Under the pieces are notes generated by a model. That model was not told the DNA's origin. It did no database searches and saw only the letters and a list, made by a program, of their open reading frames with translations. Positions 4,004 to 18,645 of a DNA stretch of 20,000 bases are shown one piece after another. The translations under genes and the position numbers were made by a program. Position 1 is the first letter of the stretch; every line of letters begins with the position of its first letter. Source of the stretch: an uncultured virus (IMG/VR IMGVR_UViG_3300025362_000006) (taxonomy: Duplodnaviria > Heunggongvirae > Uroviricota > Caudoviricetes); the IMG/VR virus record IMGVR_UViG_3300025362_000006. The stretch is one strand, 5' to 3'.

Positions 4004-7000
4004 ATGGACCATTCTCAAGTAATTAAATATTTTGATGAATATATAAAAAAATATTCTCCTTACCAAGATAATGAGACTTATTTAGCATTAATGGAGTATA
4101 TAAGTCAAACATTCACAAAAGAATTATATGAAAATATTCCAACTCAATTTAAACAATTGTATGAAGATAACTATATAGATATTGATATGTATGATATTTT
4201 ATTACGGAACATCGGTGTCCCGGATAAGATATTATCTAAATTAAAAATCAATGAAAAAATAATTCTATTTAAAAACTTTACTGATTTTTATCGGTATCGT
4301 GGGGACGTTTATTTTTTTGATAAAGTATCTAAGTTATTTGAGGGGGCAGATACATTATTTGATATTTATGAATTGTATATTGATTATGATGAAGCAATGC
4401 AAGATTGGGTATTTAAACCGTATAAATTAGTTAAAAACACAAATCTTGAGTTATTGACAGATAATATCAGGTACGATCAGATATATGATAACATACCAAG
4501 TTTCTTAATTACCAGACAACAGTTAACTACACATAAAAATAATAAAGAAATAGTTCTTCCAGTTAAATCGAATATTCTTTTATTGGATTACTCATTTACT
4601 TATAATTTAAGTGAGATGATGCACTTAGTGAATGCTACATTCTTAAAACAATATAAGAAGAAAGAAATAACTTGTTATTTTATAGCTGATGAATTCATAT
4701 TTACATTAAGAGAATTTTTTATAATTTGGTATTATATTTTATTACGGTGTTATGATTCATCAATTGGTGACGTCCCCTTACAATGGATAATAGAATACAT
4801 TGATTCAAGTAATCCATATACACTTTCTAATATTGATGAAATATTAGAAGAATATAAATTGGTGACAACTGCTCTTCAAAGTCGAAATTTTTATGAAAAA
4901 TATATAAGTCGTCCATTTAAAAACTTTACATATAGTGCCCCACATGAATCTACAGATTTTGAATATTTGCTTACATCAGATTTTATTGAATACATCGATA
5001 GTAGGATAGTTGAATCTATAATGGACGATAAACAAGTATATAATATTATACTTGATGAATTATTAAATTCATTAGTCTTAGACATTAGTACAACATATGA
5101 TGAATATTATGTAAAATATTCAGAATATTTTATAAACTCGTTAACTCGTATAACTCTTGATCCTAAATTAACTAGTTCATATTTACTAATGCATAACTAT
5201 AAACCTTATCATACTGAATTATTATCAGCATATAATGAACTTATCTTCTCAAATAGTAATTTTGATTTAGCTGCTCCCGATGCTTACAAAGTACAATTTT
5301 TATATGATATGCAGGTTTTAGATAATCTTAATAAAGTGGATTATTATATTACTAATTTTATTTATAATTCTTTTAACGCTTTGACTTTTAATGAAAATAC
5401 TCTTTCGAAATTTGTATTAGAAATTCAAAAAGATTTAGAAATACTTGAAAAGAGTAACTTCAAATATTCTAAGTTTAATATAAGTAATCTTGAACAAGTA
5501 GATGTTAATAAAATTGATGTGGATTTAACACAAATATTTCAACTGTTACCAATTGAATATTCAAAAATAAATACATTACAAAATGCATTCAATAAACTGA
5601 CTGTTGATGGTGAGTTTATTATTAATTATTTGACACAACTCAATTCTACATTTACCTTTTTTGATTATACTATAAAGAAAATTCATAATTTGTTTTCTTC
5701 ATTTAATAATTTAACTGATGTTTCAAAGAGCAATTATAATAACATTTTACAAGATATATTAGAAAAGATTGAGTATACTGTTTTTGAAGTTTTAGGTAAA
5801 ACCTCAGACACATTGTTAACTACAGAATTTTTAGAAACAATTTATAATATATTGTTTAATGTGGTTAACAATATTAGTGAAGATTTAAAAATTGATTATA
5901 ATCAAATTGAACAAAGTGGAAAATCTACAATTAATCACGATTTCAATTTTATAAATTCAAAAGATAAAATATATACATTTAATCTTAGTGAATATATTGG
6001 TATAGGTAAACTAAATATTGGTGACAAAGTAAAATACATACACGATGATGATGTTCATTACGGAGTCATAAAAAGATTTGAAAGTGATCATATTAAATTA
6101 GCATCTGAGTATACAGGATCAACTATTTCTGGTCAACTAATGAAACAGTCTTCACCAGTACTAGATATTGTAGGACGAATATCTTTGAGTGCAGTTAAAC
6201 TTATTGACTCACTATTAACTACAGAGTTCTTAACGCTCATTCAAAATATATTCCTTACAACTGTTCACACTACTGAAGACATTTCTAATATTAATTCTAC
6301 TAAAATATTTGAACTTTCATTAGAAAAAAGTGAATCAATATTATTTGAACAATTGACAAATTTAATTGACAGTTTAAGTATTTCCGACTTTGAACACTCT
6401 AAACTCAAACTTCAAGTAGTTAAATTGTTGTCCCTTTATGATCAGGCAATTTGTAAGTATATGGTATATGGTTCTGAAGTTACCGATTTATTAGATGAAC
6501 AAGGAACTACAGATTTTAAGAAACAAATATTAGATAAATTATTATCAACAGAGTTCTTAAATTCAATTATAAATATATTTTATACGACATTTAATAATAT
6601 TGATGATAGTTCAAGTAGTAATTTTTTTCAAATTGAACAAAGTGGAAAATCTACAATTAATCACGATTTCAATTTTATAAATTCAAAAGATAAAATATAT
6701 ACATTTAATCTTAGTGAATATATTGGTATAGGTAAACTAAATATTGGTGACAAAGTAAAATACATACACGATGATGATGTTCATTACGGAGTCATAAAAA
6801 GATTTGAAAGTGATCATATTAAATTAGCATCTGAGTATACAGGATCAACTATTTCTGGTCAACTAATGAAACAGTCTTCACCAGTACTAGATATTGTAGG
6901 ACGAATATCTTTGAGTGCAGTTAAACTTATTGACTCACTATTAACTACAGAGTTCTTAACGCTCATTCAAAATATATTCCTTACAACTGTTCACACTACT

Positions 7001-7414
7001 GAAGACATTTCTAATATTAATTCTACTAAAATATTTGAACTTTCATTAGAAAAAAGTGAATCAATATTATTTGAACAATTGACAAATTTAATTGACAGTT
7101 TAAGTATTTCCGACTTTGAACACTCTAAACTCAAACTTCAAGTAGTTAAATTGTTGTCCCTTTATGATCAGGCAATTTGTAAGTATATGGTATATGGTTC
7201 TGAAGTTACCGATTTATTAGATGAACAAGGAACTACAGATTTAAAAATTGCTCCGTTTACTGATTTGTTGTCATCAACAGAATTTTTAAGTTTAGTTTAT
7301 AATTTAATTTTTTCTTCACTTAATATTATTGTTGATAAGTCAAATACTATTTATCAACAGGCTGCAACTGATAGCCAAACAATATTAGAGGAGATTTTAA
7401 TTTTTCAACTTTAA
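4004..7414 (+). CDS. Large baseplate wedge protein (P2 gpI / T4 gp7-like N-terminus) with a repetitive fibre-like C-terminus
   Basis: LFKNFTDFYRYRGD..FFDKV..LF and YKPYHT motifs typical of gpI/gp7-like wedge proteins; C-terminal half has 18-aa periodic repeats and a duplicated ~205-aa block; SD AAGGAG. Confidence 0.6.
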   Translation: MDHSQVIKYFDEYIKKYSPYQDNETYLALMEYISQTFTKELYENIPTQFKQLYEDNYIDIDMYDILLRNIGVPDKILSKLKINEKIILFKNFTDFYRYRGDVYFFDKVSKLFEGADTLFDIYELYIDYDEAMQDWVFKPYKLVKNTNLELLTDNIRYDQIYDNIPSFLITRQQLTTHKNNKEIVLPVKSNILLLDYSFTYNLSEMMHLVNATFLKQYKKKEITCYFIADEFIFTLREFFIIWYYILLRCYDSSIGDVPLQWIIEYIDSSNPYTLSNIDEILEEYKLVTTALQSRNFYEKYISRPFKNFTYSAPHESTDFEYLLTSDFIEYIDSRIVESIMDDKQVYNIILDELLNSLVLDISTTYDEYYVKYSEYFINSLTRITLDPKLTSSYLLMHNYKPYHTELLSAYNELIFSNSNFDLAAPDAYKVQFLYDMQVLDNLNKVDYYITNFIYNSFNALTFNENTLSKFVLEIQKDLEILEKSNFKYSKFNISNLEQVDVNKIDVDLTQIFQLLPIEYSKINTLQNAFNKLTVDGEFIINYLTQLNSTFTFFDYTIKKIHNLFSSFNNLTDVSKSNYNNILQDILEKIEYTVFEVLGKTSDTLLTTEFLETIYNILFNVVNNISEDLKIDYNQIEQSGKSTINHDFNFINSKDKIYTFNLSEYIGIGKLNIGDKVKYIHDDDVHYGVIKRFESDHIKLASEYTGSTISGQLMKQSSPVLDIVGRISLSAVKLIDSLLTTEFLTLIQNIFLTTVHTTEDISNINSTKIFELSLEKSESILFEQLTNLIDSLSISDFEHSKLKLQVVKLLSLYDQAICKYMVYGSEVTDLLDEQGTTDFKKQILDKLLSTEFLNSIINIFYTTFNNIDDSSSSNFFQIEQSGKSTINHDFNFINSKDKIYTFNLSEYIGIGKLNIGDKVKYIHDDDVHYGVIKRFESDHIKLASEYTGSTISGQLMKQSSPVLDIVGRISLSAVKLIDSLLTTEFLTLIQNIFLTTVHTTEDISNINSTKIFELSLEKSESILFEQLTNLIDSLSISDFEHSKLKLQVVKLLSLYDQAICKYMVYGSEVTDLLDEQGTTDLKIAPFTDLLSSTEFLSLVYNLIFSSLNIIVDKSNTIYQQAATDSQTILEEILIFQL
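5902..6516 (+). repeat. Direct repeat, copy 1 (615 bp)
   Basis: No mismatch found by eye versus 6628-7242; offset 726 bp = 242 codons, in frame. Confidence 0.95.
6628..7242 (+). repeat. Direct repeat, copy 2 (615 bp)
   Basis: Identical to 5902-6516; separated from it by a unique 111-bp spacer. Confidence 0.95.
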
Positions 7415-8214: not shown

Positions 8215-9660
8215 ATGATTACTGATCGTCGAGAGCCGGGAGTATATGTATCAATCGAAGACTTGAGTTATGTTGCAGCTAACCCTAATGTGGGAAGGTC
8301 TGTATATTGTGTAGGGGTCTGTAAAAAGGGCCCTCACAATCGAATAGTTCAAGTAACTTCACAATCTGAGTTTCATACAACTTTTGGGAAACCAAATTTT
8401 TATGAAACTAGTAAATCTCATTATCATATGGACAAAGCAATGCAATATTCCGGTAGAGGATATTATGTTCGCCTTTCTCCAGATGATGCAATTCAAGCTT
8501 GTGCATTGGTTAAACAATCTAGTTCTGTAGAAAGTGAATTAGTAAGTGAAATTGCACATACATTTACTTGGGCAGCCTCTGCAACTTTAGTTTGTGCTAC
8601 TGATTGTTCTGCTGCTGTAAATGTTGGAGACTGGATATTTAGTGCAACTGAAGCTGCTGCTGACTATCAGTATGCAAAACAAGTACTTACTATATTTGTT
8701 GAATCTGATGGTTCTACAACACTCACATTAGATTCTGCTTATGCTGGAACAATTGGTGATGCTCAAGCGTTTAAATTTGTTCCTTATGAAACTGTTACCA
8801 ATACAGGTTGGGATACAGGTCTTGAATTACCTGACACTACTGCTGACCTGGACACCGATGTTGTGTATGGTTTCTATGCAACTGGTGCTGGTGCTTTTTA
8901 TAATGATTATAAAATTAAAGGTGCCCGTAATGTTGAATTAGAAAGAATGTATGTTGATGATGAAGGTCTTGCAAAATACAAATATTTGTTCATGAATGTT
9001 GCTATTTATAGAGTTAATGATGATTTGACTGAATCTATGATTGAAGGTCCTTGGGTAGTATCATTAACTGATGAAACTCCAGACGGTATTCGAATTCGTG
9101 ATTTGTCAAGTGGACAGCCGCTTTATATTGAAGATATTATTAATGATAATAGTAAATTGATTCATTGTTGTGTAGGTTCAGCAATGCAAGATCTACGATC
9201 TTCTGTTAGTGCAACTAAAACGACTGAACTTCGTAAACAAATTATGATGATACTTAGTGCTGGTCAGCCTGCTGCTACGTCTTTTATCGTTAGCGACACT
9301 ACTGGGGTCCAACTCGGTAGTGGTTTTGATGGCACTACGGATGGTCAGGGAGACAGTGCAAGTCTTCCGCTTTATAATGACACAACTGGGTTTGTTAATG
9401 TTGATACTAATATTGATGCACTTGCAGCTCAAGCATATAATTGTAGTTTAACTAGTGTTGATGGGTCTATCGGGCAGATGAGAGAAGTAACTTATCCTGT
9501 TTACCAACCTGATTATATTCTTACTGGTGAATGGTCAGCAGCTACTCAAAATTCTGGTCGTTATCTTGCAGATCTTCGTCAAGATTGCATTCATCTTGGT
9601 GATAGTACATATAACACTTCATATACTGCTGATCTGGATTCCCGACTGAATGATGTGCCT
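8215..9660 (+). CDS. Tail sheath protein, exon 1 (joins 9947-10552; spliced product 683 aa)
   Basis: N-terminal PGVYVSIEDLS, KGPHN, EFHTTFGKP sheath motifs; frame ends at ...LNDVP exactly at the intron 5' splice site. Confidence 0.92.
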
Positions 9661-9946
9661 TAATATCTAGGGCCATATATCGGTGACGATATATGATAAT
9701 TTCTTTAATTGCTGGAAACTCCTAAGATTTAATATGATATATTAAATTGGACAATCAGCAGCAAAGATCTACATAAATTGTAGATAATGTTCAACGACTA
9801 TCCCAGACATGGGAGTAGAACACAAGTGTGTTCGAAATAGGAAACATCTATTATTAGATGAAGATATAGTCTATTCTTATAGGAAACTATAAGCAATCTT
9901 TATTTAAAGATTGAAATAAAATTAACGATTTTATTTTAATACAAAG
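9661..9946 (+). ncRNA. Self-splicing group I intron, subgroup IA-like, no homing endonuclease ORF
   Basis: P1 with U9660-G9670 wobble; P AATTGCTGGAAA 9707-9718, Q AATCAGCAGC 9753-9762, R GTTCAACGACTA 9789-9800, S AAGATATAGTCT 9861-9872; P2, P7.1, P7.2, P8, P9 hairpins; terminal G9946; removal restores the reading frame. Confidence 0.95.
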
Positions 9947-10552
9947 TGGAATAACTGGACATCAGCTCTATATTGTCAATTCCGAAAACGGAGAGATGAA
10001 TACACTGGACAGAAGATGATTGTGAGTCCATGCTATCATGCTATTGAGAATCATTTAGTTATTGATGGTAATTACTTCCTTGGTGAGCCTGTTGCAGGTA
10101 TTGAGAAAGGTGCAATTGCAGAACCAATTGAACTTGTTTATACAGCTAACCATACAGAGCGTGGAGATTTGGGCGATGCTGAATTGAATCTTACAATTGT
10201 TGAACCTGAAGGTAAATATTTTCTTACTCAATTTACTACCTGGAAACGTTTGAGTATTTTGAAGAGACTTCATGCTGCTAAGTTTGTTACATTTGTTAGA
10301 AAATCACTTCCTCCTCTATTGAAAGATTTACTTCAGAGGAAAGGTACAAATTTCTGGATTAAACAGGCGAATGCTAGAGTTACTTACTTTCTTTCAAAAT
10401 ATATTGGATCTGAAGTCGAAGCACTCAATATGTTAACATCTTTTTCTGTCAATGTTGAGTTTGACGAGATTGCTTCCGAGTTAAATGTTTATGTTGGTTT
10501 GGCACCTGTGCGGGTGATTGAGAGAATCAATGTATATATTGCAGTGAGCTAA
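9947..10552 (+). CDS. Tail sheath protein, exon 2
   Basis: WNNWTSALYCQFRKRRDEYTGQK continues in frame into ORF 10016-10552; ends ELNVYVGLAPVRVIERINVYI, a typical sheath C-terminus. Confidence 0.92.
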   Translation, partial: WNNWTSALYCQFRKRRDEYTGQKMIVSPCYHAIENHLVIDGNYFLGEPVAGIEKGAIAEPIELVYTANHTERGDLGDAELNLTIVEPEGKYFLTQFTTWKRLSILKRLHAAKFVTFVRKSLPPLLKDLLQRKGTNFWIKQANARVTYFLSKYIGSEVEALNMLTSFSVNVEFDEIASELNVYVGLAPVRVIERINVYIAVS

Positions 10553-13853: not shown

Positions 13854-14288
13854 TTACTCAAATATATGAGTATAACTAGCACAATTATTTTCAGTCTCGT
13901 AAATTTGTATTGTTATCTCTTTTAAGTCTTTTATTTTGTTCTTAAACATTGCTTTTGCAACTGCACAAAATATAATTGCCATCCGTTCAGCGGTTGTTGG
14001 ATGTGGCCAGACTAAATATTTAAATCCGTTCTTTTTAACAAATTCAATAAATTTAATATCACTCTTTTCAATAATACAAGCATGATCATATTTACTATCG
14101 AAGAAATCTTGAAATTCTTTTAAATGGGTAAAATCAATTATCATGTGCTGTTCATTTAAGCTCGATGCTTTAATTTTCAGAAACACTTTATATGAATGTC
14201 CGTGAATGTTCTTACATGGACTATCATAATCAAGACAATTAAGTCGATGACTTGCTTCGAATTTGAATTTTTTTTCTATGCTATACAT
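13854..14288 (-). CDS. queD: 6-carboxy-5,6,7,8-tetrahydropterin synthase (PTPS family)
   Basis: FEASHRL, CKNIHGHSYKV, IDF..LK, YDHA, PTTAERMA, ETENN are canonical QueD motifs. Confidence 0.95.
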   Translation of the reverse strand: MYSIEKKFKFEASHRLNCLDYDSPCKNIHGHSYKVFLKIKASSLNEQHMIIDFTHLKEFQDFFDSKYDHACIIEKSDIKFIEFVKKNGFKYLVWPHPTTAERMAIIFCAVAKAMFKNKIKDLKEITIQIYETENNCASYTHIFE

Positions 14289-15125: not shown

Positions 15126-15797
15126 TTATTTTTGATATTTAATTGGGTCTACTTTACCAAGACTAGCGAATGCTTCGAGTCTTTCATTGCATGATCCACA
15201 TCTTCCGCAGGAGAGCTCTTGATCTTTGTAGCACGTGCGTGTCAATTGATAAGGGACAACAAATTCTTCTGGAAGTTCACAACCAATTTTCAATATTTGA
15301 GTCTTATCAATATTTAAAAATGGTGCAAGAACACCAACTTTACCGTCACTAGATTTGTTAATAGTAGTTTTAAGACTCTCTATAAACTCAGGACGACAAT
15401 CAGAGTAAATGTGATGATCCCCAGCATGAACACCAAGTGCAATATGAGTTGCATCAATTGATTCAGCATAACCAGCAAGGATAGACGCAAAGATTAAATT
15501 CCGTCCTGGAACGACGGTAGTTTTCATATTTTCATCTTCGTAATGACCTTCTGGAATATCTCCACCAGATTTTAATAGATCCGATTCAAACATATATTCA
15601 ATAAAGTTTAAATCAATTGTTGGAAAGACATCAATTCCATAATAATCACAAAAGTGGATTGCACATGTTCTTTCATATTTGTTATGTTTTGATCCATATG
15701 AAAAGTTAACTGGACATACTTCATGACCTTTCGCAAGATAATATCCAAGCATCGTACCTGAATCCATTCCACCACTTAAAGAAAGTACAATTTTCAT
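15126..15797 (-). CDS. queC: 7-cyano-7-deazaguanine (preQ0) synthase
   Basis: PP-loop SGGMDS, YGSKH, TVVPGRNLIF, YSDCRPEF, TRTCY...CGRCGSC.ER Zn motif; start reassigned to ATG 15797 behind GAGGAG. Confidence 0.96.
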   Translation of the reverse strand: MKIVLSLSGGMDSGTMLGYYLAKGHEVCPVNFSYGSKHNKYERTCAIHFCDYYGIDVFPTIDLNFIEYMFESDLLKSGGDIPEGHYEDENMKTTVVPGRNLIFASILAGYAESIDATHIALGVHAGDHHIYSDCRPEFIESLKTTINKSSDGKVGVLAPFLNIDKTQILKIGCELPEEFVVPYQLTRTCYKDQELSCGRCGSCNERLEAFASLGKVDPIKYQK

Positions 15798-15967
15798 TTT
15801 TTCTCCTCTTCTTTTTGGTAATACTCGCCATTTGTATGTTGTAACCAATCACCAACTTTTGCATTTGCTCTTATTCTACAATGAAAACAAACATTCTCTG
15901 GTATTGAATAATGTTCTTGAGGGGACTGACCTTGTACGATTACTCCACCACATTTAATGCAATTCAT
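15794..15967 (-). CDS. Small Zn-ribbon protein, 57 aa (not in ORF track)
   Basis: MNCIKCGG...VCFHCR... (two CxxC); SD GGAG; ATGA overlap with the queC start. Confidence 0.75.
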   Translation of the reverse strand: MNCIKCGGVIVQGQSPQEHYSIPENVCFHCRIRANAKVGDWLQHTNGEYYQKEEEKK

Positions 15968-15985
15968 AAAAATTCTCCATATATT

Positions 15986-16026
15986 ATTAATTCCTCTTAT
16001 ATGTTAAACATATAAGAGGAGTTAAT
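15986..16026. other. Long intergenic hairpin (terminator or RNA processing/stability element)
   Basis: ATTAATTCCTCTTATATGT 15986-16004 / ACATATAAGAGGAGTTAAT 16008-16026; no clear U tract. Confidence 0.65.
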
Positions 16027-16034
16027 CTTAACAG

Positions 16035-16430
16035 TTACCCAATTTGACCTTTTGGAGCTTTCGAAGTTGCAACTTTCACGGTTTCTTCAACACTCAAGTG
16101 TTTAGGTGGTTTTGTGTAATCTTTAGTATTTTTCTTTGCTTTACTCTTACGTATTGAAAGCGTTGTTCCACTAGTCACTTCAACAACATCTTCAAAATCT
16201 TCATCTGAAATAATTTCAGCCAACATATCATAATTAACTTTTTTACGACTTGTTGTTGTATATGATACTAACCAACTCTCTTCATCATCAGTAATTATAA
16301 CTTCTTTAGTTGATTTTTTCTTATGCATAATCTTACCAATTTCATTACGAATTTCTGATTGTGCATCTTTCATTTTCTTTTCTTGAACCTTGAGATCTCC
16401 CCACATTGTCAATAATTCTGTCATCTTCAT
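16035..16430 (-). CDS. Hypothetical protein, 131 aa, N-terminal coiled coil
   Basis: Start reassigned to ATG 16430 behind AAGGAG; coiled coil then VSY...RKKVNY..L recalls small Gam-like phage proteins (weak). Confidence 0.75.
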   Translation of the reverse strand: MKMTELLTMWGDLKVQEKKMKDAQSEIRNEIGKIMHKKKSTKEVIITDDEESWLVSYTTTSRKKVNYDMLAEIISDEDFEDVVEVTSGTTLSIRKSKAKKNTKDYTKPPKHLSVEETVKVATSKAPKGQIG

Positions 16431-16458
16431 AAAAATTCTCCTTTTTTGATTGTGTGTT

Positions 16459-16638
16459 TTACTTCCAAATATCATTATATTCATCAATTGGTTTAGTTAA
16501 TTTATAATACTCATCTGCTGTTTTTGCATTTTTTGCTTGATCATAAATACTATCATGAGTGTATCCACTTGATATATGACTAGGTTTATGATTAGTTATT
16601 ATAAATAAACCTACAACAATAAGAATAAAAAACACCAT
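16459..16638 (-). CDS. Small membrane-anchored protein, 59 aa (not in ORF track)
   Basis: MVFFILIVVGLFIITN...DIWK; SD AGGAG; hydrophobic N-terminal helix. Confidence 0.7.
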   Translation of the reverse strand: MVFFILIVVGLFIITNHKPSHISSGYTHDSIYDQAKNAKTADEYYKLTKPIDEYNDIWK

Positions 16639-16755
16639 CTTAAACTCTCCTATAATTTTCTAATTTAAAATTATAGTGTTGTCGATAGAGTATGTTAGTA
16701 ATATCAATTATGTTATTTAGTGATTCGATTAGTTACAGTTAGTATATTTTTTTGT

Positions 16756-17382
16756 TTAGCTTAATTTCCAGAGGATTTCAGTTTCATTAGTTTCAAACAT
16801 AGGTAAACAAAAATTATTAACAAAATTATCGATATTACCAAAATTAATTAGTTTAATATAGAATGAATATTTGTCAAGTAACTCTTTAAAACTCCTATCT
16901 TTAATAATGTTTTTATCAATTGTGTCTAGTTTTTTAATATTGTCATATATCTTCTTAACACATTTAATAATATCAAGTTTAATGTGTCGATAATTTTCTT
17001 TTGAATTTTTTTCAACATATTTATAAAACCCTTCAAATGAATTTACATCTATATCATCCAATAAACTTGGGAAAATAGTAAGATAAAAATCACAACTGAA
17101 AAACTGATATGCTTTATGACCAACAATATATTTAACATTGGGTGTAATCGTTGCTTGATCATAATTAATCATTGGTGTATAATTTTCATGAGCATACTCG
17201 AAGAAATCATCAAGTAATAATAGTTGATATTTTAATTCAATTTTATCAATCATATTAATTCCAAGATTATTGAAATAAATATACTGACCTTCCACGATTG
17301 ACTTTATTCGATTTAAATAATCTCCATCAATGTTATTTTCGTTTTTAACATCATAAATAGAATCTGCTTCTACAATATCCAT
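16756..17382 (-). CDS. Hypothetical protein, 208 aa
   Basis: SD GGGAG; operon packing. Confidence 0.8.
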   Translation of the reverse strand: MDIVEADSIYDVKNENNIDGDYLNRIKSIVEGQYIYFNNLGINMIDKIELKYQLLLLDDFFEYAHENYTPMINYDQATITPNVKYIVGHKAYQFFSCDFYLTIFPSLLDDIDVNSFEGFYKYVEKNSKENYRHIKLDIIKCVKKIYDNIKKLDTIDKNIIKDRSFKELLDKYSFYIKLINFGNIDNFVNNFCLPMFETNETEILWKLS

Positions 17383-17406
17383 AACTTTAATTTACTCCCA
17401 TATTTT

Positions 17407-18645
17407 TTAGAATAGTAGATTGCCACCCGTTGCAACATCACAAACTTCAGTAGTTCTAATTGAAATTTTTCCACTTTTACAATCGGATACTGAAGCATAC
17501 TTTCCACTGTTCATCTTAACAATCCAAACAGTATATGTGTCTGCATCTACCGGTAAAAAATTACTACTTCGTAAAGCAACATCTGTATTAGTTTCATCGA
17601 GAGCTTGAACTTTTGGATCGTTTTTATATTCTGGAAATGTGTATATTGCAGTGTCCGGAATATGAATAGCCTTGACTTTCCCATCTTGAAAAAGGTAATC
17701 GATATAGTCTTGGTCTTTAGCCAAGGTTTTAACTATTTTTCTAATGTCTTTGTCAATTTCAAATTGGCATACATTTTCACATCCAGTCATATCAAATGAC
17801 TGAGCATCCTGTTGGAGATTTGTTTCATCCTGTTTAGGTAGAAATAATTTAACTTCACCATTAGTCACTACGTATCTGGAATTTTCATTATCTTCAATAA
17901 TAAAAATATTATCCTGACTTTTAAATTGTTCCAGGAGCTTAATATATTTTTTCGGATTAATAATATCCAGATCTACAAAATCTCCGTTTTGACTCTTTAA
18001 TACTTTTTGAATATTTGCTTCAATTATACAATCCGTTTGACCCTGTTTGATCTTAGATTGTTTAATTGTAATTGATTCATCGTTGTTCTCCTTATTCAAT
18101 ATCTGGAGAATTTTAACCATGTTATCATAGTCTGCTGGTGTAATTGCAGCTATAATCTGCTTATCTTCAACATTTGGACTAAAGGATTCAGTTATTGAAT
18201 CTAATGGTCCTCGTTCAGGAGTTGGTTGATTGACAGGTTGTGTTTGGACTGGCTGTTGTATAACGGGTTCAGGTATTGCTTGATTAATAGGTTGTTGCAT
18301 AATAGGTTCAGGTTGAGCATAATTAGGAGTTTGTTGAATAATAGGCTGACCAACAGGATCGTCTCCTCCCATTATTTGATTCAATATTCCTTCATCAATA
18401 TTAATTGGTTCTGCTTCAATTGCCGGTTGCTGTGTAAGCATAGGTTCTTGGATATTTTGTTGAATAGGTTCCTGATATTGAACTGGAGGTTGTTGAGTCA
18501 CCTGTTGCTGCTGTGGGTCTTCAACTCTTTGTGGAGCAACAGGTTGTTGAAATCCTTGTGGAGCAGCAGGAGGAACTGGTGGAGCAACTTGTTGTGAAAT
18601 TGATTCTGCTATGTGAGTAAAATTATTTACTATTTGTTCAGTCAT
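17407..18645 (-). CDS. Putative sliding clamp (T4 gp45-like) with a Q/P-rich disordered N-terminus
   Basis: C-terminal ~250 aa aligns by eye with gp45 segments (EANI; DLDIINPKKYIKLL; LFLPKQD; DYIDYLFQDGKV); first ~150 aa is Gln/Pro low complexity. Confidence 0.55.
   Translation of the reverse strand: MTEQIVNNFTHIAESISQQVAPPVPPAAPQGFQQPVAPQRVEDPQQQQVTQQPPVQYQEPIQQNIQEPMLTQQPAIEAEPINIDEGILNQIMGGDDPVGQPIIQQTPNYAQPEPIMQQPINQAIPEPVIQQPVQTQPVNQPTPERGPLDSITESFSPNVEDKQIIAAITPADYDNMVKILQILNKENNDESITIKQSKIKQGQTDCIIEANIQKVLKSQNGDFVDLDIINPKKYIKLLEQFKSQDNIFIIEDNENSRYVVTNGEVKLFLPKQDETNLQQDAQSFDMTGCENVCQFEIDKDIRKIVKTLAKDQDYIDYLFQDGKVKAIHIPDTAIYTFPEYKNDPKVQALDETNTDVALRSSNFLPVDADTYTVWIVKMNSGKYASVSDCKSGKISIRTTEVCDVATGGNLLF

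Follow-up and report, generated by a model that had tools for sequence, protein, structure and literature searches.

Evidence for an ORF-less group I intron in the tail sheath gene of an uncultured phage, with related introns at three sites in the gene family

The group I introns of phage T4, found in the td, nrdB and nrdD (sunY) genes, belong to subgroup IA2. The psbA intron of cyanophage S-PM2 is ORF-less, and it is mobilised by a free-standing endonuclease, F-CphI, in what is called 'collaborative homing'. In published accounts, phage introns are also placed in terminase, lysin, scaffold and polymerase genes, and those of the Staphylococcus Twort-like phages in lysin and terminase genes. 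As for an intron inside a tail sheath gene, we found no description in the openly readable article text searched.

Here we analyze a 20,000-nucleotide stretch of DNA from an uncultured virus (IMG/VR record IMGVR_UViG_3300025362_000006), to which we refer as the window. A preliminary description, made from the letters of the window alone, had proposed that positions 9661-9946 are an ORF-less group I intron interrupting a tail sheath gene, and it had listed the helices of the intron, the protein that the joined exons encode, and the way in which such an intron could move. We evaluate that proposal using covariance models, thermodynamic folding, homologous proteins, a structure prediction, and the DNA of related loci.

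The interrupted gene and its intron

The gene and the intron lie on the plus strand, arranged as follows.

8215-9660, plus strand: sheath gene exon 1, 482 codons, ending in AAT GAT GTG CCT (N D V P)
9661-9663, plus strand: TAA in the exon-1 frame, which opens the intron; unspliced RNA would yield a 482-aa truncated product
9661-9946, plus strand: ORF-less group I intron, 286 nt, 32% G+C, supported by Rfam, fold z-score and covariation
9947-10552, plus strand: sheath gene exon 2, 201 codons plus stop (10550-10552), starting with TGG AAT AAC TGG (W N N W)

In translation, the exon-1 frame runs from the ATG at 8215 for 482 codons and is closed by the TAA at the very first codon of the intron, as had been described. 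The exon-2 frame is open from 9926, and WNNWTSALY... is read from 9947. The exon-1/intron boundary (9649-9674) reads AAT GAT GTG CCT / TAA TAT CTA GGG CC, and the intron/exon-2 boundary (9939-9958) reads ...ATACAAAG / TGG AAT AAC TGG. The junction could be shifted one base rightward without any change in the mRNA, but only the boundaries given here provide a U.G pair at the 5' splice site together with a G at the 3' end.

That the interrupted gene is a tail sheath gene is supported across both exons, by family profiles and by a predicted structure. Both exons match the PHROG family phrog_19666 'tail sheath', exon 1 near the beginning of the profile (28-140 of 985, E 1.9e-15) and exon 2 at its end (792-983 of 985, E 1.7e-6). 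A PDB profile search matches tail sheath chains weakly (E 1.9e-5), and the sole Pfam family is Gp18_domIII_N, present in 5 of 33 sheath homologues. The AlphaFold model of P0003, the closest full-length homologue, was built with 33 aligned homologues and has a mean pLDDT of 82.6. When this model is compared to the PDB using Foldseek, the top matches are the sheaths of Klebsiella phage KP1, T4 (gp18), P1, phiKp24 and phiKZ, with E-values from 1e-24 to 1e-19 (the best being 1.1e-24), and all the matches listed are sheaths of phages or of related contractile injection systems. The insertion maps in the model to the junction of a helix with a strand, in a stretch of high confidence and strong conservation in which W487 and N488 (P0003 numbering) are invariant in 33 sequences. 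A tblastn search of both exon products against 50,697 GenBank phage records reports zero matches, which points to a phage without any sequenced cultured relative.

How does the exon junction compare with homologues that have no interruption? A large protein collection provided 76 homologues besides the query, 62 of which cover both exon parts. All 62 are continuous across ...VP/WN.W..., so that the P/W junction is collinear with intron-less sheaths, as the preliminary description expected. For 52 of them, the second BLAST alignment begins at the residue right after the end of the first, and in the other 10 the local alignment is trimmed by 1-11 residues. P0003 itself (687 aa) is uninterrupted; its residues 1-486 align with exon 1 at 80% identity, and its residues 487-687 with exon 2 at 89% identity. 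Removal of the intron restores one continuous frame of 482 + 201 codons, the 683 aa that had been announced, collinear with these uninterrupted homologues.

The 14 homologues (of 76) that do not cover both parts are informative as well, since 11 of them end at or just past a known intron site (sites A, B and C are introduced below). Four (P0004, P0009, P0011 and P0014) end exactly at ...NDVP, which is site A, three read into a site-B intron, and four end just after EPD, which is site C. At least 11 truncated database proteins of the sheath family would thus fit the same cause. In the window, gene callers give two fragments of 482 aa and 178 aa; we propose to correct this gene model, as one sheath protein of 683 aa is very probably made. 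Two other truncated homologues, P0028 (ending ...NVPWLLF) and P0054 (450 aa, diverging near residue 446), match none of the three sites exactly. Their ends may represent further insertion points or variants.

Elsewhere in the window, a 1136-codon ORF (4004-7414, plus strand) just upstream of the sheath module has only sub-threshold matches to Pfam and PHROG. On the minus strand there are a QueD-like gene (13854-14288; PF01242, E 3.9e-27) and a QueC-like gene (15126-15848; PF06508, E 7e-56). Genes of the QueD/QueC-type 7-deazaguanine pathway are used by phages for DNA modification. The ORFs adjoining these two genes have no family match.

The elements of the intron, all on the plus strand, are the following.

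9657-9662 with 9668-9673, plus strand: P1, exon GCCU and intron UA against UAGGGC, with the wobble U9660.G9670 at the 5' splice site
9668-9673, plus strand: internal guide sequence, of which GGGC (9670-9673) pairs with exon GCCU (9657-9660)
9674-9682 with 9687-9695, plus strand: P2 hairpin, 9 bp, GUGA loop
9700-9705 (UUUCUU) with 9839-9844 (AGGAAA), plus strand: P3, from the pairwise check
9710-9715 with 9755-9760, plus strand: P4, part of the P4-P5-P5a domain (9710-9760)
9720-9722 with 9749-9751, plus strand: P5, from the pairwise check
9727-9735 with 9739-9747, plus strand: P5a, from the pairwise check and the minimum free energy (MFE) fold
9761-9762 with 9789-9790, plus strand: P6, from the pairwise check
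9767-9773 with 9779-9785, plus strand: P6a, from the pairwise check and the MFE fold
9796-9800 (GACUA) with 9867-9871 (UAGUC), plus strand: P7, its 3' strand preceded by J8/7 (AAGAUA)
9801-9814, plus strand: P7.1, extra hairpin between P7 and P3'
9818-9833, plus strand: P7.2, extra hairpin between P7 and P3'
9845-9860, plus strand: P8 hairpin, 6 bp, UUAU loop
9876-9893, plus strand: P9, GAAA loop, in the MFE fold
9894-9913, plus strand: P9.1, in the MFE fold
9914-9936, plus strand: P9.2, in the MFE fold
9946, plus strand: terminal G (omega G), last base of the intron
9947-9950 (UGGA) with 9666-9669 (UCUA), plus strand: possible P10, a candidate pairing

A scan of the whole 20 kb against 4,227 Rfam families reports a single match, to the group I catalytic intron family RF00028, at 9651-9893 on the plus strand. 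The match scores 98.7 bits, well above the gathering score of 50, with E 8.2e-25, and it spans model positions 1-253 of 253. The region 9651-9956 has an MFE of -83.9 kcal/mol versus -50.1 +/- 4.7 for shuffled sequences (z-score -7.2), and 0 of 100 shuffles are as good. The MFE fold alone recovers P1, P2, P4, P5/P5a, P6a, P7, P7.1, P7.2, P8, P9, P9.1 and P9.2. P3 is absent from it, as expected, because P3 crosses P7. In a pair-by-pair check, all pairs of the window helices are standard. Relative to the Rfam consensus, P7.1 and P7.2 appear as an insertion; their position between P7 and P3' is what we take to be the layout of subgroup IA in the scheme of Michel and Westhof, an assignment made by layout. 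The longest stop-to-stop frame inside the intron has 34 codons, which makes the intron ORF-less.

Thus the intron of the preliminary description is borne out, both by the covariance model and fold above and by the covariation described below, and so are its parts: every helix listed is there, including P1 with its U.G pair and the two extra hairpins, and the intron does end in G9946. We consider it highly likely, from sequence evidence, that 9661-9946 is a true group I intron, ORF-less and bearing P7.1 and P7.2, that would be spliced out of the sheath gene between a proline (CCT) and a tryptophan (TGG) codon.

Related introns at three sites and their covariation

The DNA of relatives was collected as 80 loci: 14 + 6 from IMG/VR, 53 metagenome contigs (one of them, L017, being the window's own contig) and 7 species genomes. 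Removing 3 duplicates and 10 loci that fall short of the region leaves 67, and removing 2 that are cut by a contig end leaves 65 that can be scored. An IMG/VR scan using exon 1 alone reports zero matches; an IMG/VR profile scan reports the 14 loci, which are distant, all intron-less, and without Rfam matches.

We observe that 52 of the 65 loci are continuous across the region, and that the remaining 13, the window among them, have exactly one intervening sequence each. The 13 introns occupy three sites within 55 codons: site A (n = 5), site B (n = 6, 54 codons upstream of A) and site C (n = 2, 49 codons upstream of A).

Site A, between P0003 residues 486 and 487: GTGCCT/TAA...AAG/TGGAAT; the window (286 nt), L016 (358 nt), L020 (538 nt), L019 (1021 nt), and L022, where the contig ends inside the intron
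Site B, between P0003 residues 432 and 433: TACCCT/TGG...AAAG/TGGTAY, protein YP/WYQPD
Site B introns without interruption by contig end: L029, 4273-4636 (364 nt); L071, 1734-2094 (361 nt); L047, 4270-4786 (517 nt); L045, 4273-4837 (565 nt); L044, 4267-5246 (980 nt)
Site B, partial: L049 (first 61 nt only)
Site C, between P0003 residues 437 and 438, five codons past site B: GAT/...ACG/TATAT, protein EPD/Y
Site C introns: L068, 3184-3444 (261 nt, ORF-less, 73.8 bits); L069, 4719-5078 (360 nt, ORF-less, 102 bits)

The two site-C introns are in different sheath-gene contigs that are binned into one metagenome-assembled genome. The Rfam gathering score is passed by 10 of the 12 relatives' introns (51.9-102 bits), including L016, L020 and L022 at site A (87.6, 57.5 and 62.1 bits); the L049 stub fails it, and so does the L019 intron, whose P8 contains a gene. 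The hexamer is often present where the intron is not, in 20 of 47 empty loci for site A (CCT/TGG) and in 23 of 35 for site B.

The same-site sisters (L016, L019, L020 and L022) have the insertion point, the guide and the core in common with the window intron, and the site-A introns are mutually 60-87% identical over 219 core columns. The sisters differ from the window intron in being longer (358-1021 nt) and in having a larger P5 extension, which in the window is a plain A-U hairpin.

Nine introns from sites A and B were aligned using MAFFT, and the window structure was projected onto the alignment. Standard pairs fill 84.3% of 775 cells, versus 36.9-48.9% when the 3' partners are slid by 1-3 columns. 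Changes on both sides are observed at 35 of 94 pairs, versus 10-12 when slid, and the covariation score is reached by 0 of 500 shuffles. Another measure, the count of further pair types, is reached by 421 of 500 shuffles and carries no signal. The fold is supported by covariation in this comparison of sequences.

Helix by helix, P3, P4, P7, P7.1 and P7.2 are 100% paired across the nine introns. P3 has both sides changed in 3 of 6 pairs, P7.2 in 5 of 6, and P7 is invariant in 9 of 9. P1, in the 7 introns in which it is aligned, has 100% of cells paired, and its outermost pair changes from G-C to C-G along with the exon base. P2 has 93.7% of cells paired, and its loop-closing pair can be A-U, G-C or U-A. 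For P9 to P9.2, just 44-72% of cells are paired in the automatic alignment, which we attribute to slips of the alignment register; by eye each relative has hairpins of its own there, a weaker form of support.

Most telling is that the guide tracks the exon it faces: exon GCCU meets guide GGGC at site A, CCCU meets GGGG at site B, and GGAU meets GUCC at site C (L068). At each site a candidate P10 can be drawn between the bases just 5' of the guide and the beginning of the 3' exon. The two bases that precede the terminal G have possible partners in the last two of J7/9, and both sides change together (AA/UU at sites A and B, AC/GU at site C), a pairing that is presumably P9.0. A terminal G is present in all 11 introns with a known 3' end. 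In addition, the 15-mer TTCAACGACTATCCC, which covers J6/7, P7 and the start of P7.1, has exactly one copy in every intron that is complete or nearly so (n = 12), and the 80 loci contain no further copy.

Endonuclease genes, intron history and spread

The P8 loop of the relatives is the seat of endonuclease genes or of their remnants, and in the window intron P8 is a bare hairpin. At site A, the P8 of L019 contains an ORF of 222 aa with matches to PHROGs for HNH endonucleases (phrog_1872, E 2.5e-22; phrog_3593, E 4.8e-21), and L020 retains only the last 55 codons of an HNH ORF of the L019 type. At site B, the P8 of L044 has a 213-codon frame that is endonuclease VII/HNH-like (phrog_1035, E 5.7e-23), L045 has a 72-codon remnant, and L029 and L071 have no ORF. 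BLASTP detects no similarity between the L019 and L044 endonucleases (best E 0.59). Neither of these two intron ORFs scores above the Pfam cut-offs, while PHROGs matches both.

Inside the window intron, an intron-encoded homing endonuclease gene is absent, and the 26 ORFs scanned in the 20-kb window, which is part of a contig of 93,658 nt, report zero matches to endonuclease families. On its own, without such a gene in it, the intron would be restricted to vertical inheritance. Spread would be possible only if the enzyme of a relative cut the empty site during co-infection, and the HNH enzyme of L019 would be an enzyme of that kind. The earlier suggestion that any mobility needs an endonuclease in trans therefore agrees with what the relatives carry, namely an HNH gene in one and its remnant in another.

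What can be said about the history of these introns depends on the site. The site-B introns are 93-100% identical over the 219 core columns, and their host exons 70-86%. This looks like recent horizontal spread, as the introns are far more alike than the exons in which they sit. At site A, the whole-intron identity to the window is 84% for L016, 67% for L022 and 60% for L020, and the exon-1 identity is 74%, 64% and 66%, in the same order. These values suggest that the site-A lineage diverged roughly in step with the host gene, which would fit a long residence with endonuclease loss. The endonuclease gene may have been lost from the window lineage or may never have been in it.

Between sites, core identity is 59-74%, which is no higher than that with GenBank introns in unrelated genes. 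As examples, an unannotated stretch of Serratia phage 2050HW matches a site-B intron at 76.5% identity over positions 49-232, P5 extension included, and the 30 GenBank matches listed for the window intron are at 66-75%. The idea that site-A and site-B introns are each other's closest kin is weakened by the between-site values, which a GenBank intron match equals. A widespread family of phage introns may instead have reached the three sites in separate events. A different history, which we regard as unlikely, is that the conserved C-terminal half of the sheath is a multi-site hotspot, in which one lineage would have been re-targeted (by reverse splicing or off-target homing) before two unrelated P8 endonucleases were captured independently. 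Sites A (GTGCCT/TGGAAT) and B (TACCCT/TGGTAT) do share CCT/TGG, and their guides differ by a single exon-matching base; this shared junction is suggestive only. If a lineage had been re-targeted in this way, the case would show ectopic transposition of a group I intron among phages in nature.

Independently of which history is correct, one gene family displays stages of turnover (empty sites, intact endonuclease, remnants, and ORF-less introns) that are useful for the study of homing dynamics in uncultured phages. Of the results beyond the window intron itself, the most useful is this three-site family, in which endonuclease genes are gained and decay; it introduces no new principle.

Among the 22 sequencing runs listed as containing this DNA, none is recorded as RNA. 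In contigs assembled from four DNA runs, the intron-containing form is present, and no form lacking exactly 9661-9946 is found. Two contig joints, 9727/9857 and 9766/9853 (side 22-25, 85% likeness), were considered as variants of the window intron and set aside, as they look like other introns that share the core. As a separate observation, two conserved core segments, 9692-9773 and 9856-9896, have much deeper coverage in other runs, labelled salt lake or marine metagenome, by contigs that then diverge from the window. These communities seem to harbor many related introns.

Splicing, rival readings and known systems

In the standard group I pathway, splicing of the window intron would proceed as follows. 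The guide GGGC (9670-9673) would pair with the exon end GCCU, and free guanosine would attack after U9660. The start of the 3' exon, UGGA, would then dock on UCUA to form P10, and the bond after G9946 would be exchanged, joining ...GTGCCT to TGGAAT.... The ligated junction would read GATGTGCCT/TGGAATAAC, and the joined message would encode the 683-aa sheath, ...LNDVP/WNNWTSALY.... On unspliced RNA, translation would end at the TAA that opens the intron. The self-splicing chemistry, the use of P10 and the mobility in trans are what we infer from the pairings and from the relatives.

Can the sheath be made without splicing? The intron could be a decayed relic that is dead for splicing, with the sheath made as two polypeptides (genes in pieces) or the gene being a pseudogene. 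It is after all a reduced form, with no endonuclease gene left and with a P5 extension cut down to a plain hairpin. There is also a precedent: according to a published account, some phage intervening sequences that bear HNH genes do not splice, and the protein is made in two parts, as for NrdA of Aeromonas phage Aeh1. Against this reading, among the 10 introns of relatives above the Rfam gathering score, all but one score lower than the window core, P1, P3, P4, P7, P7.1 and P7.2 are fully paired, and the guide still matches the exon. Both exons keep open frames at 80-89% identity to the uninterrupted homologue, and a separate exon-2 polypeptide would have no start codon before 10016, at the cost of 23 residues that include the invariant W-N and Y-Q-R positions. 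We give this reading very little weight.

A splicing-competent intron could still be more than a passenger. The synthesis of the sheath might be timed or throttled by splicing efficiency, for instance through the GTP level or ribosome traffic, so that the intron would gate late expression. A stop codon placed directly at the intron start, in a gene for a high-copy protein, would suit such a role, and so would the long residence suggested by a site-A intron divergence that roughly tracks that of the exons. But 52 of the 65 scorable loci lack any intron in the region, and so does the closest homologue, P0003, at 80% identity, which implies that the intron is dispensable; and a neutral passenger, whose precise deletion is difficult, would be expected to stay just as long. 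A regulatory role is thus highly improbable, and we favor a genuine self-splicing intron, a selfish RNA element of an ordinary kind, that is carried by the sheath gene.

In comparison with known systems, the window intron resembles those of T4 td, nrdB and nrdD in several features: the group I core, the early stop, the U.G pair at the 5' splice site, the G at the 3' end, and the extra hairpins P7.1 and P7.2 that lie between P7 and P3'. Like the T4 introns, it splits an essential phage gene within a conserved part. The T4 introns differ in that they reside in nucleotide-metabolism genes, and those of td and nrdD come with endonuclease genes. With the S-PM2 psbA intron, the window intron shares being ORF-less and a spread that would need an endonuclease encoded elsewhere. 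Unlike in S-PM2, there is no endonuclease gene in the 20-kb window, and the candidate enzyme is found inside the introns of relatives and not beside them.

Introns of cultured phages are related in sequence. A blastn search using the window intron reports matches in 250 GenBank phage records, with 66-75% identity over 38-73% of the query among the 30 matches listed. Pseudomonas phage KIL1 has a joined CDS for the large terminase and another for the RefSeq 'portal', and the portal CDS overlies a match to the window intron. The best GenBank match is in Bacillus phage vB_BceH_LBC2 (L081, record positions 15258-17573), where it falls in a stretch left without annotation right after the sheath gene, flanked by a 75-codon 'virion structural protein' and by a homing endonuclease gene; this is probably an unannotated intron splitting the next tail gene. 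The KIL1, LBC2 and Twort-like introns belong to the same broad phage intron family as the window intron and have late-gene targets as well, but none of them is placed inside the sheath gene, and many carry endonuclease genes. Phages were already known to carry group I introns in late and structural genes, and to these the window adds a well-supported case of one inside a high-copy virion gene.
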